From positions 160,001-224,000 of the IMG/VR virus record IMGVR_UViG_3300035522_000179: a DNA stretch of 64,000 bases; one strand, 5' to 3'. The stretch comes from a virus. Taxonomy: Duplodnaviria; Caudoviricetes. The translations under genes were made by a program, and so were the position numbers. Under the pieces are notes generated by a model. It was given only the letters and a program-made list of their open reading frames with translations. It was not told the DNA's origin and searched no databases. Positions 5,697 to 64,000 of the stretch are shown one piece after another. The first letter of the stretch is position 1; the number at the start of each line of letters is the position of its first letter.

Positions 5697-6674
5697 ATGA
5701 TAGGAACAAACTATGATTCTTCTGTTTTTATGGAAGCATCCATGTCAGACTCTTTTATATATGGACTATTTAATTCCTCCGGTGAAATTCAAAAAAGAAT
5801 TTTGCAGGCATTAAAAGAAGGAATTCCCCTTGGAGAAAGTTATATCGAAGAACAGCTTCTTCAGATGGAGAGAAGTCGTATTTCTCCATTACTGAGTAAA
5901 GTATTGGAAGCTTATAAAGACGGATACGTTCGTTTGGTGTATTGGAAGTCTACTACCCAAAAGATGACGAAGTCCATTCCGTTTGTACTTCACAAATCTC
6001 AAAATGGACCTGTGGTAAGTATCTTTATCAGTTCTTTTGGAAAATTGACTGCTGACGAAACCAGATTAAATATTGATATGAAGACGCTTTATATCTTAAT
6101 GGAAGCTGGATTCGTTGCTTTGAATCTACAGATTCGACCAAATGTATTTAAAAGAAATACCACGATCATGCGTTGTTGTAATGAAGTGTACACGAATATG
6201 TTCATGCGAGTTTTAAACCGAGACTATGCATTGTCTTTGGACACTGCGCTTCATGATAAAGTATCCTTTACCATATCCAAATTCTTCTTGGATAATATCT
6301 GGGAACTTGGAAATTCAGATATGTCAACAAACTATGCATTGCAGACAACAACTGAAAAGAATCTACAGAGTTTGGATTTAACGTTGGCAGATTATCAGAA
6401 TGCAAAAGCTACGACCGTGGAAGAACTCTTTGGTGTATTAAAACAGATCTCTCCTAGAATGCAATCTCTTACGGTGCGGTATTTTGTAGAGAGATTCTTA
6501 AATACGTATGGTGGATCTTCCATTCTTGCAATTGATTATTTACCTTATGTATTTTTTATGATTCAGAATACCCTTGCTGGTGGATTCTTAGTAAGTCAGA
6601 CAACCTTGTCCGATATTGTAAAGAATACGAAAGACATAAGAAAGTTCTATCCAGAACTTTCCAAATCTGTTTAA
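5697..6674 (+). CDS. hypothetical, probable virion protein
   Basis: 325-aa ORF with SD AAGGTGG and an AACA-type promoter variant; heads the fibre gene cluster. Confidence 0.6.
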   Translation: MIGTNYDSSVFMEASMSDSFIYGLFNSSGEIQKRILQALKEGIPLGESYIEEQLLQMERSRISPLLSKVLEAYKDGYVRLVYWKSTTQKMTKSIPFVLHKSQNGPVVSIFISSFGKLTADETRLNIDMKTLYILMEAGFVALNLQIRPNVFKRNTTIMRCCNEVYTNMFMRVLNRDYALSLDTALHDKVSFTISKFFLDNIWELGNSDMSTNYALQTTTEKNLQSLDLTLADYQNAKATTVEELFGVLKQISPRMQSLTVRYFVERFLNTYGGSSILAIDYLPYVFFMIQNTLAGGFLVSQTTLSDIVKNTKDIRKFYPELSKSV

Positions 6675-17599: not shown

Positions 17600-19933
17600 T
17601 TAATCAATTTCTACATTGATCAAATCCACTTCAGAAGTAATCTCTTCCATAGATTTAATCTCTTTTCTTACAGGTTCTACTTCAGTGCAATTCACGAAGA
17701 AATCTTTCTTATCGTCCCAAGCACCAATAAAGTACTTTCTAGATTCAATCTCTTCATCAATCATTTCCTGAAGCTCATCGTTGTTTAAGATTCCATACTC
17801 ATGCAAAATCTCTTCCGCAATTTCATTTCTTCTATCCAGAAGATATTTTTCGTACGGAGTACAGATACAACTTTTTCCGTTACTCAGTTCAAAGAACTCC
17901 AATTCATCCGAAGAGAGTTCCACAAGATCATCATCAGAATCTAAGAAGTTAATCTCAAATCCCAAAGACTTTAAAATAATCTCAAAGAACTCTGCCACAC
18001 GAGAATCATAAGACTTGTCAACATCAATCACCGGCTTATTACTAAGCAGTGCTTTTCCGAGATCTCTACGACCTTTTACAGAAGTTCGATACAGTGCATG
18101 AATTAATACCACCTCTTCAGGCATACATCCGATTGAAAAATTCAATGTTTCGAATTCTCCGAAGCGTATAGCCGTTGAAGAGAATAGGTCTTTATGAGAT
18201 TTCGACTTGTAACTTCTTTCTGGTATTCCTTTTGCATTTACAGCTCCAATTCCTCTTACACTGAATCCTTTCTTTGCTGTTTGTTTCAGCATCAAGATGT
18301 ACATATTTGCGATATAAGAAGGTTCGATACATTGTATCTCTCTACCAAACTTTTGTATGTACATTGTATCCGGTGCTAGTAGATCTTTGTATTTCTCCCG
18401 GATAGCATCAAGTCTGTAGAAGATTGGTGATTCTTCTGTCATAGACGGTTGATGGAAATGAATTTTATGATTCATACAATAATCCATCCACGCTTGTTTC
18501 TGCTTAGTAGATAAATTCTTATACTTATCCTTTAAATACTTCGCTTCTTTGGAGTTGAACATGGTAAGAACATCGAAATAGATTTTCTCACGTTCTTTCA
18601 ATGTAGTAAGTTGTGTTCTCATATATTCACTGATTCGTTTTCCAATGAAGTTTGTAGCAAGTTCAAAGATTGGTGCGGCAGTGGTTCTATTGACAATTGC
18701 TAACAGATTCAAGATTAACTGTACATGAACTTTATTTCCATCTGCATTATAGTAATACGGCATATCCTCTTTCTTACGAATCTGAGATATAACAGATTTG
18801 TTTCCACTTCGTCCAGTAATCTTTTGACCAACTGAAGGACCAACTTCCCTTTCCACTAGGATGTGAACCTGAACATTGGAGAAAGCACTGTCTTTTTCTT
18901 TCCATTTCTTTTTCAAATCCAACATCTCGTTTGCTCTCTTGTAAAGATAATCTATATCCGCTGAGTAATCCTCTCCGGAAGCAAAGATCTCTTCACAAGT
19001 TTCTACAATCTTGGTATAGTATTCATTCTGAGCTACCCAGTAAGTATAAATCTGGTGATAGAAAGAATTATCCTGCAAGTCCTCATTATTGCAATAGATA
19101 TCAATATCCATCACTTTTCCTTTCAGATAATACTTTGTATCCGTATCAAGTACTTTAGAAAGCATATCTGCCTTAAAATCATGGAGGACTTGGTTGTTAA
19201 TCTTTCTTCTGGAAGCTACCAAGATACCATTGGATTCCTCTCCGATGTCTGGGAAGGTTTTGTAATTTACTTCATCTCCATACAGATTTAACGGATAATC
19301 ATTGTCGTTAAAGGTTGCAATGTTTTCTTCCGATTCGGTACAAACCAGTTTATCCATCAAATCATCAGAGATGACTGCAGCGTCCTCAGATGTATAGGGA
19401 TCCAAAGAATACATGGTCACCACATCTCTTCCATAAGAGTAGTTCATACTCTGGTCATAAGAAACGGATTTGTATGCAACGGTTCCCTGATCGATTTCTT
19501 GCCCCTCAACAAAGGAGTCAATCATCTCGTTGTTATTCCGATATCCGTATACTTCGGATAAATTCTCTAGGGGTTTTCTTTCCAATACCTCATACCGATT
19601 CTTCTTTTTGTTAAAGAGAAACAGTTTGTAAACTGTAGGATTTTCTACCAATCCCTCGAACTTTACAATCTTTCGAAAGATAATAGATTCGTCCAATACT
19701 TTGTAGGAGGTATTGTGCTTTCCTACCACATTTTCTCCACCAGAAAAGAACTGGGGGAAATCAGAATAAAGCTGCGTCTTAAACTGATTTAAGTGAGAAG
19801 CAAACATGACACTTCTCATACTATTTACGTATTGCGGGAATGTCAACATTCCTTTTCCTTCAATGGAAGGATCGCCGCGATATTTCTCGTCGGCTGCTAA
19901 TAATTCCTCTCGTAAATTATACTTCTCTTTCAT
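17600..19933 (-). CDS. phage multisubunit RNA polymerase, beta-like C-terminal subunit (probably non-virion RNAP)
   Basis: SEDAAVIS, GQKITGRSGNKSVIS, LNLLAIVNRTT, LKQ and IRFGEFET correspond to conserved beta regions; early-type promoter variant ACATATTAT at about 19972. Confidence 0.9.
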   Translation of the reverse strand: MKEKYNLREELLAADEKYRGDPSIEGKGMLTFPQYVNSMRSVMFASHLNQFKTQLYSDFPQFFSGGENVVGKHNTSYKVLDESIIFRKIVKFEGLVENPTVYKLFLFNKKKNRYEVLERKPLENLSEVYGYRNNNEMIDSFVEGQEIDQGTVAYKSVSYDQSMNYSYGRDVVTMYSLDPYTSEDAAVISDDLMDKLVCTESEENIATFNDNDYPLNLYGDEVNYKTFPDIGEESNGILVASRRKINNQVLHDFKADMLSKVLDTDTKYYLKGKVMDIDIYCNNEDLQDNSFYHQIYTYWVAQNEYYTKIVETCEEIFASGEDYSADIDYLYKRANEMLDLKKKWKEKDSAFSNVQVHILVEREVGPSVGQKITGRSGNKSVISQIRKKEDMPYYYNADGNKVHVQLILNLLAIVNRTTAAPIFELATNFIGKRISEYMRTQLTTLKEREKIYFDVLTMFNSKEAKYLKDKYKNLSTKQKQAWMDYCMNHKIHFHQPSMTEESPIFYRLDAIREKYKDLLAPDTMYIQKFGREIQCIEPSYIANMYILMLKQTAKKGFSVRGIGAVNAKGIPERSYKSKSHKDLFSSTAIRFGEFETLNFSIGCMPEEVVLIHALYRTSVKGRRDLGKALLSNKPVIDVDKSYDSRVAEFFEIILKSLGFEINFLDSDDDLVELSSDELEFFELSNGKSCICTPYEKYLLDRRNEIAEEILHEYGILNNDELQEMIDEEIESRKYFIGAWDDKKDFFVNCTEVEPVRKEIKSMEEITSEVDLINVEID

Positions 19934-22758: not shown

Positions 22759-23097
22759 TTAAAAGGTAAATCGATACCCGTCTTTTGCAGAAGAGCTCAT
22801 ACCTTTTTCCAAAATTCCGAGAAGTTCCAGTCTGTCAATGGCTTCTTTTACTTTCTTCTTTTTGATTAAGAGTTCTTCTGAAATCACAGACGGAGAAACC
22901 GTAAGAAAGTTCAAAGGGTCTTTGTTATTCCTTTGGGTTTTTCTCCTCTCATAATTATAACCATTCAAAATGGTTACTAAGTACATGAAGACTCTCAACT
23001 CTTCTTTTGATAAGTCTTCGTTTACGATGATATCTCGAAATCTTTGTTTCGGAATATGCGTCGTGTCACTGTATTGCGTGATCTCTATGGTTGCCAT
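22759..23097 (-). CDS. winged-HTH DNA-binding protein, early class
   Basis: LSKEELRVFMYL...ISEEL.I....V..AIDRLELLGILEK pattern; CTATATTAT promoter at about 23129. Confidence 0.7.
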   Translation of the reverse strand: MATIEITQYSDTTHIPKQRFRDIIVNEDLSKEELRVFMYLVTILNGYNYERRKTQRNNKDPLNFLTVSPSVISEELLIKKKKVKEAIDRLELLGILEKGMSSSAKDGYRFTF

Positions 23098-23156
23098 CGC
23101 AATTCTCCTTTCGTGTTTATCTATGAAAATAATATAGCTTTCAAATAGAATCTCGT

Positions 23157-44266: not shown

Positions 44267-45574
44267 TTAAATCATTCCAACTCTTTCCAGAGTATTCTTG
44301 ATCTGATTAATCTCTTCATCTGAATAGATGCCATCATCCGCAGCTTCCTGAACGTAGTTCCAGATCTCATCATTCATAGCACTCTCATTGGTAGAAGTAT
44401 CTCCAGAATCGTCAGAACCAGAATCATCGCTTCCATCATCGGCATTGTCACCGTCATCGCTCTTACTCTTCTTACCCTTCTTCTTACCAGAATCATCAGA
44501 GTCATCATCAGAAGAATCACCCGAGTCATCACTTCCGCCGCTCAGTGCTTTGGAAAGCTTCTCATCCAGCTTGTCAGCCAGCTTCTTCTCTTCGTCAGTA
44601 AGAGTGATTTTAGCCTCTTTAATTTTTTCTTTCAGACTAAAGGATTCTCCATCATCACAACCACCGTCATCTGCAGCATCCTGTACATCTTTTGCTTCAT
44701 TAATCTTCTTTGCAGCTTCCTCTTTTCCTTCTTCGTCACCAGCCTCAGCAGCTTCCAGATACTGACGAACATAGTCGGGAATACGATCAGGTGTTGCCAC
44801 ACTGTACATATAATCCTCGCTTGCAAGTTCAAGCATTACATCTCTTTGCAGATCTGTAATCAAACCAGCATTGTAAGACTCTACAATGTAATCTACGAAC
44901 TGATCTCTCTGCTCTTCGATTGCTGCCTCTACAACAGAGTTTACTGCCTCGTTTTTCTCGACTTCATTCTCAACACTCTCAAGACGGAGTAACAAATAAT
45001 CTCTGAAGTTATCTGAAATTTTTCCAGATGCTGACTCCTCAAATACATCGATCTTCATCTGTTTCAAATCCTGTGTTGTCATAGTTTTATACTCTCCTTC
45101 TTTTACAGATTCTTCGTATGTTTCATACTGAATTTTTCCATGCTTTAAAGCTTCCGGGTTTACATAAACTCCCATTTCTCCTAAAGCACGAACGATATCA
45201 CCCCTCTTTTTTGTCAGGGTGTCTGCATATTTTAATCTGCCAGTTTTCTGAATCCCATATTCTGCTTGCTTTCTGGGATTCATGGCTTCTTTTTCGTTAT
45301 CCGAAAGTTCTTTCATAGTATCGGACAGAGCTTTTTTCAAGTTCCGAACCGTTGCATCTACGTTATCGGAATTTAACCCTTTAAGGTAGTTTTCCTTTTT
45401 GTATTTTGTAGCAGCTCCGTGAATTGCATTTTTTCCATGGGGAGTTTGGTAGAATACCTTCTCTCCTTTTTTATTCAAGGAATATTCGGTGGAATTTCGA
45501 TCAGTAAGAAACGCTTTCGTATCACGCTTTGCTCTACCAATGACTTTCCACGCGTCATTAATAATATTCGGCAT
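44267..45574 (-). CDS. probable prohead core/scaffold protein (possible internal start at 45082)
   Basis: Directly downstream of the protease; three E-S/A-xx-G-x-I repeats; D/S/G low-complexity tract. Confidence 0.6.
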   Translation of the reverse strand: MPNIINDAWKVIGRAKRDTKAFLTDRNSTEYSLNKKGEKVFYQTPHGKNAIHGAATKYKKENYLKGLNSDNVDATVRNLKKALSDTMKELSDNEKEAMNPRKQAEYGIQKTGRLKYADTLTKKRGDIVRALGEMGVYVNPEALKHGKIQYETYEESVKEGEYKTMTTQDLKQMKIDVFEESASGKISDNFRDYLLLRLESVENEVEKNEAVNSVVEAAIEEQRDQFVDYIVESYNAGLITDLQRDVMLELASEDYMYSVATPDRIPDYVRQYLEAAEAGDEEGKEEAAKKINEAKDVQDAADDGGCDDGESFSLKEKIKEAKITLTDEEKKLADKLDEKLSKALSGGSDDSGDSSDDDSDDSGKKKGKKSKSDDGDNADDGSDDSGSDDSGDTSTNESAMNDEIWNYVQEAADDGIYSDEEINQIKNTLERVGMI

Positions 45575-57924: not shown

Positions 57925-58068
57925 TCTAGTTTTCCTTTCTAAATCTTTATCGTGTTATAATCAATAAAATAATATATTTCTATTTTACTTAATTAGATTT
58001 TCCTAAAAAATATGACTTCGTATTTCTTAGGGGACAAAACCTTAATCAATTTAGAAAGGGTTTACGTT

Positions 58069-60657
58069 ATGAAAATATGTGAACTTGAATTAACAAATTT
58101 TGCTGGTATCTATGCTACCATGCACAGAACTTTTGTAAGACTGAATTTAAGAAAGTCAAAAAATAAGATTTGTTTGATTACTGGTCCGAATGGACACGGT
58201 AAGACAGTGTTACTGTCACAGTTAAACCCTTTCGCCACACTCGGAACTGTGGATGAAAGGGATTCTCTTCAACTTATATTGGAAGGGAAAGAGGGACATA
58301 AAAAAATTATCATTCAAGATGAAGAAAACGAATATGAAATCGACCATTTCTATTCACCAAATAAATCCACACATTCTGTGAAGTCTTACATTAAGAAAAA
58401 TGGAGACGAATTAAATCCAAATGGAAATGTCACTTCCTTTAAGGAAATTATCAAGAATGAACTGGATATGGAACAAGAGTATATGAAACTTGTTCGTTTA
58501 GGAAATAATGTAACCAATCTCATTGAGCTTAAGAGTTCTGAGAGAAAGACCTTTATGTCAAAGATCTTAGAAGATGCGGATATCTATCTTAAGTATTATA
58601 AGAAGATTAATATGGAAGTAGGAACCTTAAAGACATTAATCTCTCATACAACGGATAAAATCAATAAGCTTAATGTAGATGATGTGGATGGAGTAAAAGA
58701 GAAACTAAAGAAAGAAGAAAAAGAATTAAAAGAACTGGACGAATCCATTTTGAAATTAAACGATACGATATCGGTAATTGAATTTCAGATTGGGTCGATT
58801 CCCCCAGTAGACATGGAGAAACTTCTGGATTCTGAAGTGAAACTAAAGAAGATGGAAAAGAAGCTAAAAGAGAAATCTTCAATATCTGTAGAATCTCTTA
58901 AGAATGACGAAGTGGAATTGTCTTTACGAATTGCTACAAACACAGAGAGATTACGGAGTTTAAAATCTTCTTTGGATAACTCTCTGGATACCATGGATTC
59001 CACAAGGTCTTCGATTAATATCTTGAGTCAACAGCTGAGTCGAATTGAAGATTCTACCGATATTATTGGTTTAACGAATATCATCGTTTCCTTAGAAAAG
59101 ACTATTAAGGAAGAAGAGGAACGTTTCAAACCTTATGGAGAAATTGGATATACTAGAAAAGATATTGAAAACTTCTTAGCATTCATTAAAGAAAAGCAAG
59201 AGGTTTTAAATACAACTTATGAGTTTGGTTCGGAAGTTGTAAAGAAAGTCTGTGATCTTTTGATGAAAGATAAGAACGTGATTTCTTATATTGAAGATCA
59301 TTTGAGGAAAGCAACTGAGGATGAAGAGATTGACAATGGAAAGTCGATTATTAAAAGAGTCTTTTCCAGATATCCGAAGTTTTCGATTCCTTCCAAATGT
59401 ACAAGTTGTGAAGCAATGGAAATCATCAACGACTTTCAGATGATTGCGAACATTGAAAAAGATAGTGAGTTAAAGTCAAAAGAGTTCTATACTTATATGA
59501 ATATGGCTTATAACAACATCAAAGGAGTTTTACTGTCTTTTTCGGAAAACAAAGAGTTGTTTTTAAAACTTCCTGAGTATATCAGGAAGGAATATAAAAC
59601 AGATGTCCTTCTTAAAAAGATTGGGAAAACCGAAATGGTTTATGATCAAAAGTTAATCTTTGATGAGTTATCGTTTATCACAGATTACGAGTTGTATTTA
59701 TCTCATCAAGAAGAATTAGAAAATAAAGAAACTGAATTAAAAACAATGGCTCATGAATCTTCTTTGAAATCTTTGAAAAAACAGATTAAAGAGCTGTCCC
59801 TGAAGTTAGAGCAAACAACGAGCAATTATTCCAAAGAGACAGAACTTTTCGCTGAAATTTCACGCAGTTTAGAGAAAGATAAAGATGAATTAAGTGAATT
59901 ACATACATTGATAGAGGCTCTGGAAAATAAAAACGAATTGGAATCTTTTGTAAAAGAAAGCAATGATTCTTTGAAAAAGAAAGATCAGTATAAAGAAGAG
60001 AAGTTTACCAAAACAAAACTTCGAGATTCCATGTCACTTGAAAAAAATAAAATCACAAGAGATATTTCCTTAATTCAATACACTTTAAAACAACTGGAAG
60101 AATTTAAAAAAGAATTAAAGGTTTATCAGAAATACTATGATGAATGGATTTTGATGAAGGAATCTCTTTCCGCGAATAAGGGAATTCCTTTGATCTTCAT
60201 TGACCTTTATTTAAAGAAATCTTTGAATGTGGTGAATGCATTACTGGATAGAATATATAATGGAAGAGTATATGTAGAGAAGTTTGATATTGCGGCAGAT
60301 TCGTTTACAATTCCTTTTGTAAAAGAGGGAACGAATGTACCGGATATTCGGTATGCTTCTCAGGGAGAGAAATCCTTCTTTTCCATTAGTTTATCTTTTG
60401 CAATCTCTTTTCAAAGTATGAGTAAATATAACATCATGTTATTGGATGAGTTAGACTCGGTGTTGGATGAGTCCAATCGATCGAACTTTATTCAGATTAT
60501 TGAAGAATTGATTGATATGATAAATGCGGATCAAATCTTTATTATCTCTCATAACAACATGTTTTCCATGTATCCAGTGGATGTGGTTTCTGTTGTAAAT
60601 GAATTACCGAAAGATAATAATCTTGCAAACTATATTGAAATCGAGTATGAGCAATAA
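58069..60657 (+). CDS. sbcC: SbcC/Rad50-like SMC ATPase
   Basis: GPNGHGKT, long coiled coils around a CTSC hook, signature ASQGEK, LLDELD..LD, IISHN; start ATG 58069. Confidence 0.92.
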   Translation: MKICELELTNFAGIYATMHRTFVRLNLRKSKNKICLITGPNGHGKTVLLSQLNPFATLGTVDERDSLQLILEGKEGHKKIIIQDEENEYEIDHFYSPNKSTHSVKSYIKKNGDELNPNGNVTSFKEIIKNELDMEQEYMKLVRLGNNVTNLIELKSSERKTFMSKILEDADIYLKYYKKINMEVGTLKTLISHTTDKINKLNVDDVDGVKEKLKKEEKELKELDESILKLNDTISVIEFQIGSIPPVDMEKLLDSEVKLKKMEKKLKEKSSISVESLKNDEVELSLRIATNTERLRSLKSSLDNSLDTMDSTRSSINILSQQLSRIEDSTDIIGLTNIIVSLEKTIKEEEERFKPYGEIGYTRKDIENFLAFIKEKQEVLNTTYEFGSEVVKKVCDLLMKDKNVISYIEDHLRKATEDEEIDNGKSIIKRVFSRYPKFSIPSKCTSCEAMEIINDFQMIANIEKDSELKSKEFYTYMNMAYNNIKGVLLSFSENKELFLKLPEYIRKEYKTDVLLKKIGKTEMVYDQKLIFDELSFITDYELYLSHQEELENKETELKTMAHESSLKSLKKQIKELSLKLEQTTSNYSKETELFAEISRSLEKDKDELSELHTLIEALENKNELESFVKESNDSLKKKDQYKEEKFTKTKLRDSMSLEKNKITRDISLIQYTLKQLEEFKKELKVYQKYYDEWILMKESLSANKGIPLIFIDLYLKKSLNVVNALLDRIYNGRVYVEKFDIAADSFTIPFVKEGTNVPDIRYASQGEKSFFSISLSFAISFQSMSKYNIMLLDELDSVLDESNRSNFIQIIEELIDMINADQIFIISHNNMFSMYPVDVVSVVNELPKDNNLANYIEIEYEQ

Positions 60658-60825
60658 AAAGGCTCCTAGAGAACTGAACGTTCTAAGGTTCTCTAGGAGT
60701 CTAGTAATGCGTCAGGCTTCACGAAAGGAGCGGTATTTTCAATAAATCATAAATTGCAAATTGCGAGTCTGTACATTTATTAAGAAGTTTACCATAGGCA
60801 AAAGACTTTTTCTACCCAACGCATT
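60655..60825 (-). ncRNA. candidate late structured small RNA 1 (rod-like, anti-SD bubble)
   Basis: AACA-AAATGT-TA promoter at 60836-60825; 5' AAUGCGUUGGG pairs with CCUGACGCAUU; own terminator hairpin at about 60660-60702 with a U-tract only on the minus strand; no SD-led ORF. Confidence 0.65.
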
Positions 60826-60841
60826 AACATTTTGTTTTTGA

Positions 60842-60883
60842 AAAATCCCCTGTATGAGAAATCAATCTCATACAGGGGATTTT
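60842..60883 (-). terminator. terminator of the NlpC/P60 gene, just upstream of the sRNA1 promoter
   Basis: AAAATCCCCTGTATGAGA/TCTCATACAGGGGATTTT. Confidence 0.85.
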
Positions 60884-60885
60884 AA

Positions 60886-61833
60886 TTACTTATTGGTTGA
60901 TGCGAACATCGCACGAAGTGTTGCACTTCCAGCGTATCCATCAGCAGCCAAACCTCTGGTATCATTCTGATATTTCGAAACATATGCTTTTGTGATGTCG
61001 CTATAATTGGTAGACACCTTCGTGGAATTGATAATTCCTTTCATGTCATATCTCATGACAGCATACAGATAAACATGAACGATATAAGTAATATCTGCAA
61101 AAGCAGTAGTGTTTTTCTTCATTGCAGAATAAGCAGGGCAAGCTGCAATTGTTTTGGTACCATACTTTCCATCAATCGAAAGCTTCGTGTTGGTCTTATA
61201 CTCTTTTACAAACAACGTCTGAAGAACCTTTACAGTTGCTTTCAAAGTGTTATCTCCGTAACTTCCATCTACTTTAATCTCTTCTTTTCCAAGTTTCGTA
61301 TTCACCCAAGTCTGATAATTGGTTACGATAACATCGGACGAAGTGGTATCCGTAGCTTTTTCTGTTTCGGTATACTCTACAAAAGAGGGAATCCCATAAT
61401 AATACCATCTACTGATCTTGAGATCCTCTTTGTAAACATTGAGTTTAGAGTCTCTCATCTCAACGGTACATCCATTTCCAAGGTATGCACCCATATGGGT
61501 CAGGTTTTTATTGAAAACCATACAAACCTTGTTTTTCGGAATGGCACCAATCAGACCCTTCTCTGTGCAATCGTTATAAAAGCCAGAGGCAGATCTGTCT
61601 ACACCAGAAAGAGGATAGAAGGCACCACTACAGTCTGCACCAATCTTTCCTTTTCCTTCTGCGAGTTTCGCATTGTAATAATCTTTGTTGTAAGTTGCTG
61701 ATCCAAATTGCTTGTACAATTTATCCGTAAGGGTTTTTGTGATGGTCTCACCGTTTGCTCCCCACAGATAGATTGCTCCATTGTTGTAAAGATCTTCGAA
61801 ATACTTTACGAACTTTTCACTACTTACACTCAT
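60886..61833 (-). CDS. NlpC/P60 peptidoglycan peptidase with PG-binding repeats
   Basis: YLWGA, ADCSG, THMGAY; repeats VDGSYG, IDGKYG, ADGYAG..T. Confidence 0.85.
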   Translation of the reverse strand: MSVSSEKFVKYFEDLYNNGAIYLWGANGETITKTLTDKLYKQFGSATYNKDYYNAKLAEGKGKIGADCSGAFYPLSGVDRSASGFYNDCTEKGLIGAIPKNKVCMVFNKNLTHMGAYLGNGCTVEMRDSKLNVYKEDLKISRWYYYGIPSFVEYTETEKATDTTSSDVIVTNYQTWVNTKLGKEEIKVDGSYGDNTLKATVKVLQTLFVKEYKTNTKLSIDGKYGTKTIAACPAYSAMKKNTTAFADITYIVHVYLYAVMRYDMKGIINSTKVSTNYSDITKAYVSKYQNDTRGLAADGYAGSATLRAMFASTNK

Positions 61834-63703: not shown

Positions 63704-63859
63704 ATGGAAGAAAACCATGCAAAGAAAGCACACCATATTAAAACAATCAAACGATCTGAGATTAGTTCTTTGAAATCAGAATACATCAATACCTTAATTG
63801 ATCACAGTGATTCCACCTTACGATATATTAGAAAAAGAAAAGAGCAAAGGAATAAATAA
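63704..63859 (+). CDS. 51-aa basic protein (not in the ORF track)
   Basis: SD GAGGAGG; MEENHAKKAHHIK... Confidence 0.55.
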   Translation: MEENHAKKAHHIKTIKRSEISSLKSEYINTLIDHSDSTLRYIRKRKEQRNK

Positions 63860-63947
63860 TAACTATGGATCCATCGAGAATTTAATCTCGATGGATCCAT
63901 GTTGTTGAGGAAGGTTACATAGAATACTCTAAGCAAATTTAATTGCT
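63855..63947 (-). ncRNA. candidate late small RNA 2 (hairpin, anti-SD linker, terminator)
   Basis: AACA-ATTATT-TA at 63958-63947; 5' hairpin AGCAA-UUAAAU-UUGCU; linker containing AACCUUCCUC; 15-bp hairpin at 63865-63900. Confidence 0.5.
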
Positions 63948-64000
63948 AAATAATTGTTATTCAAAAATATAAAATAAGAACTAGAGTAGAAATGAATCTA

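Follow-up and report, generated by a model that had tools for sequence, protein, structure and literature searches.

The question raised by this locus is what occupies the gap between two converging phage genes. The DNA analysed here (the window) is a stretch of 64,000 nucleotides (nt) comprising positions 160001-224000 of the virus record IMGVR_UViG_3300035522_000179, which has a length of 249.6 kb, is rated complete by CheckV and is referred to below as G000. In the window, an sbcC gene on the plus strand and an endolysin-like gene on the minus strand converge, with 228 nt separating them, and an earlier note on this DNA had read the minus strand of the gap as a stand-alone late transcription unit for a rod-shaped RNA with an exposed anti-Shine-Dalgarno bubble, which might block ribosome-binding sites (RBSs) in antisense or mimic an open promoter in the manner of 6S RNA. 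Our analyses indicate that the unit very probably encodes a real, conserved and structured late non-coding RNA (ncRNA) of ~170 nt, and there is equally good reason to think that it defines a new RNA family, with paralogues. The description as a phage late ncRNA is well supported by the class of its promoter, the lack of a conserved open reading frame (ORF), the retention of promoter, helix, boxes and terminator in relatives, compensatory base changes and strand-specific G.U pairs. With regard to its role, the best overall explanation, which we put forward tentatively, is a late small RNA that would pair in trans with Shine-Dalgarno (SD) sequences.

A search for homologues next to sbcC in related phage contigs, as proposed in the earlier note, has identified nine other metagenomic contigs (viz. 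L001, L139, L002, which is identical to L003, L161, L166, L167, L168, L172, and L173) that carry the endolysin-like gene, the RNA and the converging sbcC gene in this order, making six lineages including the window. The flanking genes in these contigs are much diverged, because their SbcC proteins are 50-54% and their endolysin-like proteins 35-64% identical to those of the window. All of the syntenic relatives have a terminator, the motif AACA-N6-T[A/T] (AACT in L172) and then a closing helix (P1), which starts at +1 or +2 in every relative, and a second terminator follows 6-16 nt past the 3' strand of the helix. Outside P1 the RNA sequences of the lineages barely align. In the window, P1 pairs positions 60825-60814 with 60717-60706 in 12 base pairs (bp), of which three are G.U, and it is present in both the minimum-free-energy and the centroid folds. 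Its 5' strand AAUGCGUUGGGU (60814-60825, minus strand) and its 3' strand GCCUGACGCAUU (60706-60717, minus strand) are supported by these folds and by covariation; thus the first 12 nt of the RNA are predicted to pair with nt 109-120, and the ~95 nt between the two strands are without a conserved ORF.

The sequence of P1 differs from lineage to lineage, reading AAUGCGUUGGG in the window, AAGGC...GAGUAC in L172, AAGUAAUUAGAA in L002 and L161, AAGUGAUUAG in L001 and L139, AAGCAAAUAAAAACG in L166, L167 and L168, and AAGCAAUA in L173. A MAFFT alignment of 10 sequences missed the 3' strand of the window's helix and a core-trimmed set was used instead, on which RNAalifold returned 11 P1 pairs, 8 of them changed on both sides. 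In a model-fitted alignment, one row of which is a chance match from another part of the window, 96% of the P1 cells are paired, compared with 39-56% after the partner has been shifted by 1-3 columns, and the covariation score of P1 was reached by none of 500 shuffles. Smaller changes are of the same kind: between L166 and L167 a U-A pair of P1 becomes U.G, and all four differences between L001 and L139 in a long inner hairpin stay paired through G.U on the RNA strand equivalent to minus, while they would give A.C mismatches on the other. The RNA was assigned to this strand because the G.U pairs hold on one strand only. The structural conservation that the earlier note had proposed to look for is therefore present as compensatory changes in P1 across six lineages.

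Other measures of the fold are less distinctive. The stability of the RNA core relative to shuffled sequences is modest (z = -2.0; 8 of 200 shuffles fold equally well). A covariance model (R1) scored L001 and L139 at the right place with only 11.6 and 11.0 bits (E ~3), and held-out members were not recovered by the model, so that the membership of L001 and L139 rests on synteny, promoter, P1 and boxes. R1 gave no match in AR9, G004 or G005, but the known copy in G001 was likewise missed, and this result is therefore uninformative on absence.

A second line of evidence comes from the promoter. The jumbo phages related to AR9, among which the window's phage is placed below, and those related to phiKZ transcribe with two non-canonical RNA polymerases (RNAPs) of their own. 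The late consensus of AR9 is AACA-N6-TA/G, with the transcription start site (TSS) at its last base (PMC5312081). The sequence AACAAAATGTTA at 60836-60825 (minus strand) fits this consensus as AACA-N6-TA, and the perfect promoter noticed earlier is thus found where it had been placed. In its longer form AAAACA-N5-TT, the promoter, of the type read by the non-virion RNAP (nvRNAP), occupies 60826-60838 (minus strand), with AACA at 60836-60833 and the T at -1 at 60826. The predicted TSS was set at A60825 because the AR9 rule takes the motif's last base as the start, and the 12-bp helix begins at this same base, which bears out the claim that the predicted +1 and the start of the closing helix coincide.

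The bare 12-mer AACA-N6-TA is not enriched in the window (39 sites vs. 56 expected). The extended 15-mer AAAACA-N5-TTAA is specific in the genome, occurring at 28 sites in the 249.6 kb, of which 25 are intergenic, where intergenic DNA makes up 8% of the whole. When the flanks of the other 15-mer sites were read, an SD and a start codon were found within ~10-75 nt, the exceptions being the RNA's own site and an ambiguous one at 44481 (plus strand); within the window, the genes led by such sites encode, among others, a tail-fibre protein and three structural proteins of the virion, and the extended consensus is common to the genomes G001, G002, and G005. The RNA's promoter fits the 15-mer at 15 of 15 positions, yet it has no SD-led gene behind it. 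Judged by these motif counts, the unit belongs to the genuine AR9-type late-promoter class.

The interior of the RNA is predicted to be branched and differs between lineages. In the window, the 5' arm of an inner hairpin, UUAAUAAAU, lies within 60775-60790 (minus strand), and its 3' arm, AUUUAUUGA (60739-60747, minus strand), pairs with 60783-60775 in the centroid structure. The rod shape suggested in the earlier note is not borne out by this branched fold, and its inner GGUA/UACC helix shares G residues with the closing helix and has no covariation support. These features bear on the proposal that the RNA imitates an open promoter, as 6S RNA does, and thereby captures the RNAP of the host or the phage. 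The length of ~170 nt and the paired termini are shared with 6S RNA (RF00013), and late timing would suit a shut-off of transcription. However, a search of positions 60300-61200 against Rfam 15 (4227 families, E up to 10) gave only chance matches of the miRNA or snoRNA type and none to RF00013, the folds are branched and lineage-specific, neither a long rod nor a central bubble is conserved in them, and a conserved element resembling the template-strand UGUU was not seen. We consequently consider a 6S-like function very improbable.

Two short boxes are retained within this variable interior. The AAAAUACC box, located at 60732-60739 (minus strand) in the window, is found as AAAAU[A/U]CC in every lineage and is the most conserved element of the RNA; it usually stands right after a hairpin of unrelated sequence (e.g., in L002, L161, and L172). 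The CU-rich box GCUCCUUUCGUG (60720-60731, minus strand) contains CUCCUUUC, which is identical to 8 nt of the 3' tail of Firmicute 16S rRNA. This tail reads GAUCACCUCCUUUCU. The box has a predicted unpaired probability of 0.73, and an identity of 8 nt to the tail was reached by 12 of 2000 shuffles of the window's sequence. A first CU box, ACACCUCC, is present in five lineages (as AACCUCC in L173 and AUCACCUCGCUUUCU in L172), and in the window it has decayed to AAACUUCUU (60775-60790, minus strand; alignment A6 and motif listing), which runs into the 5' arm of the inner hairpin. The second CU box is AACUCCUUU[C] in L002, L161, and L172 and GCUCCUUUC in the window. Each of the two CU boxes is contained in the 16S 3' tail, with 7-9 identical nt per lineage, a length that dinucleotide shuffles match in 0.5-8% of trials per sequence (p 0.005-0.08); these p values are not independent, since the lineages are homologous, and the weight lies in conservation against a diverged background. 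Both the CU and the AAAAUACC boxes have a predicted unpaired probability above the average for the RNA. Of the exposed anti-SD bubble described earlier, the mostly unpaired box resembling the 16S tail stands, and the conserved central bubble does not.

The CU boxes gain interest from the RBSs of the phage genes. Genes behind early-type promoters (TATATTAT) were compared with those behind late promoters, and AAGGAG was found upstream of 14/28 early vs. 5/42 late genes in G000 (p = 0.0008), 21/38 vs. 9/47 in G001 (p = 0.0007), and 18/43 vs. 9/47 in G002 (p = 0.02; all by Fisher's test). No such split of AAGGAG was seen in G005, where no such RNA was found. Late genes prefer sites of the GAAGGUG/GGUG type, GGUG being present at none of 28 early and 13 of 42 late genes in G000, and AR9 has the GGUG split while the AAGGAG split is absent. 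The division between early and late RBSs fits, as circumstantial evidence, a late RNA that masks early-type SDs through its CUCCUU box.

The sequence of events that we envisage is as follows. The nvRNAP would start at A60825 from the late promoter and stop at the hairpin and U-tract near 60656, giving an RNA of ~170 nt that would be stabilised by its paired 5' end and its terminator hairpin and whose variable interior would keep two boxes unpaired, viz. AAAAUACC and the CU-rich copy of the 16S tail. This RNA would act in trans, late in infection, with the CU box (CUCCUUUC in the window; ACACCUCC and/or AACUCCUUU in relatives) pairing with SDs of the AAGGAG type, which lead early phage genes far more than late ones and are presumably common in host mRNAs. 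Such pairing would lower the translation of AAGGAG-led messages, and AAAAUACC would be a probable contact site for a protein or the ribosome. The wider proposal concerns a late-RNA family in a clade of gut AR9-like jumbo phages, every member having a closing helix, a AAAAUACC box and a copy of the 16S tail. That this family forms an RNA-based early-to-late translational switch, by which the AAGGAG sites of host and early phage mRNAs are masked and late mRNAs escape through their GAAGGUG/GGUG-type sites, is speculative and, taken as a whole, rather unlikely.

Several observations weigh against pairing with SDs. The first CU box is decayed in the window and the second is absent in the L001, L166, and L173 lineages, so that neither is universal; pairing with SDs leaves AAAAUACC, the most conserved box, unexplained; there is no significant difference between early and late RBSs in their duplex energies with the box region (p = 0.13, 0.08, 0.97, 0.63); and a seed of 7-8 nt directed against every SD would need very high levels of the RNA to have an effect. 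The sole candidate target is not kept either. It is the RBS CACGAAAGGAG (23105-23115, minus strand) of an early gene for a 112-aa winged helix-turn-helix (wHTH) protein (22762-23097), and it is exactly complementary, over 11 nt, to CUCCUUUCGUG of the RNA. The leaders of its orthologues L176 and L178 match their own RNA over the SD core only (7 nt in G002, the genome of L002, and ~5 nt in G001, the genome of L001), and the chance of such an 11-mer among 46 AAAGGAG leaders is estimated at ~0.1-0.2. The wHTH RBS was thus rejected as a specific conserved target: the 11-nt match is real, and its extension beyond the SD core is lost in the orthologues. Blocking of RBSs is plausible but unproven, because the one proposed target is not conserved. 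Of the antisense RBS blocker proposed in the earlier note, the conserved unpaired CU box and the early AAGGAG bias speak in favor, and the unconserved target and the similar duplex energies speak against; action of the RNA by SD pairing is accordingly possible and somewhat doubtful.

The conservation of AAAAUACC suggests a different explanation, and its distribution extends beyond this locus. Units consisting of a late promoter, a closing helix and a terminator were sought by an architecture scan in five whole genomes, with the expectation taken from random positions. The scan recovered 2 units vs. 0.5 expected in G000, 5 vs. 0.5 in G001, and 3 vs. 0.2 in G002, including the known RNA in each of these genomes; in G005 (0 vs. 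1.0 expected) and AR9 (0 vs. 0.8) too few are expected to judge distant forms. The motif AAAAU[A/U]CC is present in 8 of the 10 units, with an estimated chance of ~0.03 per 200-nt stretch. Examples of these 8 are G001:257246(-), G001:44344(+), G002:56171(+), and G000:58912(+). In the related phages, four paralogous late units (G001:44344(+), 257246(-), and 142148(+), and G002:56171(+)) have a closing helix of 10-14 bp at +1, AAAAUAC[C/U], CU-rich stretches and a terminator. One of them, G001:44344(+), contains AAAAUACU and ends in ...UUGGGACAAAAAU, which resembles the tail that follows P1 in L001 and L002. Outside the window, a GC-richer late unit of 242 nt (G000:C1:58912-59230, plus strand) has the closing helix AAUACUCAG/CUGAGUAUU, a 14-bp terminator and, close to the helix's 3' strand, a T-loop-like GGUUCGA stretch. 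In two short orphan late units of simpler form, also outside the window (G000:C1:41667-41800 and 89454-89570, plus strand), AAAAUACC stands close to the 5' end and the terminator is strong; directly after the second comes a late promoter with a gene under its control. Because 8 of the 10 units and the two simpler ones carry the box, the window's RNA is, by its shared motifs, one member of a small late-RNA family of which AAAAUACC is the hallmark. The combination of AAAAUACC followed by a CU box was too noisy as a genome-wide signature.

In the alternative suggested by these data, the RNA would serve as a scaffold or decoy for proteins. Its function would lie in AAAAUACC beside the helix, to which the ribosome or a protein of the phage or the host would bind, and the CU box would be secondary; pRNA-like late roles (packaging, virion cargo) and the sequestering of a factor specific for the 3' end of 16S rRNA are covered by this explanation. 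It accounts for AAAAU[AU]CC being the most conserved element in all lineages and for its recurrence among late units that exceed expectation in G000, G001, and G002. The box is also 3.9-fold enriched in the intergenic DNA of G000, and its complement GGUAUUU occurs in none of 246 RBS regions. Because of this complete absence, AAAAUACC is, as far as RBS sequences can tell, not an RBS-pairing seed. Against a scaffold or decoy, the only adjacent genes that travel with the RNA are the endolysin-like gene and sbcC, the RNA matches no known family, and the box is also present in some mRNA leaders. We regard this explanation as unlikely.

The AAAAUACC box can also be read as codons, [AUG/UUG/GUG] AAA AU[A/U] CCN (Met-Lys-Ile-Pro), in which case a tiny ORF or its translation would be the product and the RNA, with its long structured leader, would be a minigene or an mRNA for a peptide. 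In the window the box and the preceding UUG give UUG AAA AUA CCG, the start of a 7-codon 'MKIP' mini-ORF without an SD. A start codon stands at the box in four of the six lineages (UUG in the window, AUG in L002 and L161, GUG in L166-168), the change from AUA to AUU keeps the amino acid, the base that follows CC is unconstrained, and the 11-mer ATGAAAATACC (e.g., window 60732-60742) is in excess in G000, with 8 copies vs. ~0.3 expected (an estimate from base composition). Among the paralogous units, the one at G000:58912(+) contains GCAAUGAAAAUACC, which at G000:58969 opens a 44-aa Cys-rich 'MKIP...' ORF, and that at G000:41667(+) starts A-AUG-AAA-AUA-CCA, leaderless. However, no SD precedes any MKIP mini-ORF, the start codon is missing in L001, L139, and L172 (UUU), in L173 (AUA) and in several paralogues, and the mini-ORFs vary from 5 to 26 codons with nothing kept after MKIP except nucleotides constrained by P1. 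The explanation as a whole is therefore improbable; a translated peptide from the mini-ORF seems unlikely from the codon patterns, and a minigene or ribosome-contact role of the MKIP box is conceivable. The copies of ATGAAAATACC in G000 are mostly intergenic and near the genome ends, and each opens an ORF of 7-44 codons without an SD.

No SD-led or conserved ORF follows the promoter and no ORF is shared among the relatives on either strand, in agreement with the earlier statement that the ~120 nt behind the promoter lack an SD-led ORF. The leaderless 11-aa ORF MRWVEKVFCLW, which the earlier note had named as a possible product, is absent in all of the relatives, which start with AAG and not AUG.

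The geometry of the terminators raises the last of the alternatives. Behind the endolysin-like gene, an 18-bp hairpin occupies 60842-60883, where the earlier note had placed this gene's own terminator (minus strand), and a terminator is present at the same place in all of the syntenic relatives. As an A-tract flanks one side and a U-tract the other, the hairpin probably also stops plus-strand (sbcC) transcripts, and it scores on the plus strand too in our terminator scan. The RNA's own intrinsic terminator (60656-60699, minus strand) has a 12-bp stem (60699-60688/60674-60663), a 13-nt loop and the sequence CC-UUUUU (60660-56); it was not listed by the terminator scan, whose loop limit was 8. 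Its U-tract, which overlaps the sbcC stop codon (TAA, 60655-57) on the opposite strand, is confined to the minus strand, as had been noticed, and the plus-strand sequence after the hairpin is UCUAGUAAUGCG. Because the second hairpin has no plus-strand U-tract, sbcC transcripts should run on to 60883, probably covering the RNA in antisense.

The late RNA might thus act in cis, forming a duplex of ~170 bp with the 3' untranslated region of sbcC, which would be complementary to it throughout, and altering mRNA stability, or the unit might merely insulate converging transcription. The converging geometry, the UCUAGUAAUGCG sequence and the plus-strand score of the first terminator are consistent with this, and so is the finding that the RNA is present only where sbcC converges: no such unit was found at the same position in L125/L140, L162/L163, L164, L165, L169/L170, or AR9, which are without a converging sbcC, other genes standing behind sbcC in AR9. 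Late antisense transcripts have also been reported for AR9 (PMC5312081). An effect in cis, however, needs neither a compensated closing helix nor conserved boxes, paralogous units exist elsewhere in G001 and G002, where a gene may or may not converge on them, and the second terminator is flanked by U-rich tails on both strands in several relatives. Antisense action on sbcC or insulation is accordingly, in our estimate, a poor candidate for the function of the RNA. For L002, contigs from one metatranscriptome run match the 3' part of sbcC (6300-6570) and not the RNA, a result from contigs that cannot show absence.

The tentative reading of a late RNA that pairs with SDs has several partial precedents. 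Firmicute small RNAs (sRNAs) with C/U-rich seeds (e.g., RsaE/RoxS, RNAIII, and SR1) occlude SD sequences in trans. They resemble the phage RNA in having their own promoter and intrinsic terminator, a length of 100-200 nt and an unpaired pyrimidine motif complementary to the SD; the phage RNA differs in its late nvRNAP promoter and helix-closed ends, it has no kinship with them in sequence or Rfam, and its action on SDs is proposed only. The RegB endoribonuclease of T4 targets GGAG in the SDs of early mRNAs and so ends early translation. The analogy with RegB is functional only, since RegB is a protein that cuts, while the RNA proposed here would mask the SD; if the anti-SD explanation is true, the RNA would be an RNA counterpart of RegB. 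We know of no mechanism described for the post-transcriptional shut-off of early genes in AR9-like and phiKZ-like jumbo phages, and this locus offers a concrete candidate: its promoter is defined and its +1 predicted, its helix covaries, it has two short boxes, and early and late RBSs show a matching split.

Other phage RNAs are alike in shape or timing. The pRNA of the phi29 family (RF00044), found in small podoviruses, is a phage RNA of 120-174 nt in which a helix joins the two ends and the structure persists through near-complete sequence divergence. The likeness to the window's RNA is in shape only (a phage RNA with an end helix and diverged sequence), as there is no match to RF00044 and no link to packaging genes at the window locus. 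The sRNA1 and sRNA2 of PAK_P3 and the band C and D RNAs of T4 are late small phage ncRNAs of unknown function (PMC4933390). They are likewise intergenic and non-coding, ~100 nt in length, strongly late and proposed to act on translation (PMC4933390), and they are unrelated to the present RNA in sequence, host phylum and polymerase; the evidence for them is transcriptomic, whereas that presented here is comparative (covariation). The text of the AR9 transcriptome paper (PMC5312081) has no mention of noncoding or small RNA, and our literature searches found no report of an ncRNA for AR9-like phages, in line with the impression given in the earlier note. The new RNA family, with its paralogues, would suit curation of the Rfam type, and it is carried by uncultured phages of cattle and other animal guts.

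The phage itself is, by its encoded proteins, an AR9-like jumbo phage. This placement was made because its SbcC-like ATPase (58012-60657, plus strand) resembles the counterparts in the Bacillus phages AR9 and PBS1 (~41% identity) and because two RNAP beta-like proteins are encoded. The two matches to Rpb2_6 above the cut-off in G000, at window positions 18239-19465 (minus strand) and at G000:138581-139324 (plus strand), fit a pair of virion and non-virion multisubunit RNAPs. The closest relatives of the phage are uncultured contigs, and the sequencing runs that hold the nearest, L002, are mostly from faeces and cattle gut. A blastn search against cultured phage genomes gave no match, a scan of genome contigs with the endolysin-like protein gave no relatives, and a scan of IMG/VR with the bare 14-mer was unspecific.

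The gene at 60886-61833 (minus strand) has peptidoglycan-binding domains and an endolysin PHROG match, and one of the more than 100 homologues of its protein bears NLPC_P60, so that its earlier label as an NlpC gene is roughly right. A second orphan late unit in the window (63855-63958, minus strand) comprises AACAATTATTTA, a 5' hairpin GCAAUUAAAUUUGC, a linker with AACCUUCCUC and a 15-bp terminator hairpin; it has no gene behind it, lacks a closing helix and AAAAUACC, and fits the extended promoter consensus more weakly. Two minor features of sbcC may also be mentioned. Its longest ORF begins 19 codons (window 58012-58068, plus strand) ahead of the start common to all of the relatives (MKICEL...), and the true start is probably Met20. 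Beyond its 3' end, at 60716-60741 (plus strand), the CU-box complement folds into a 5-bp hairpin with GGUAUUUUCA behind it; this feature was flagged by the terminator scan and could be a weak stop for sbcC read-through.

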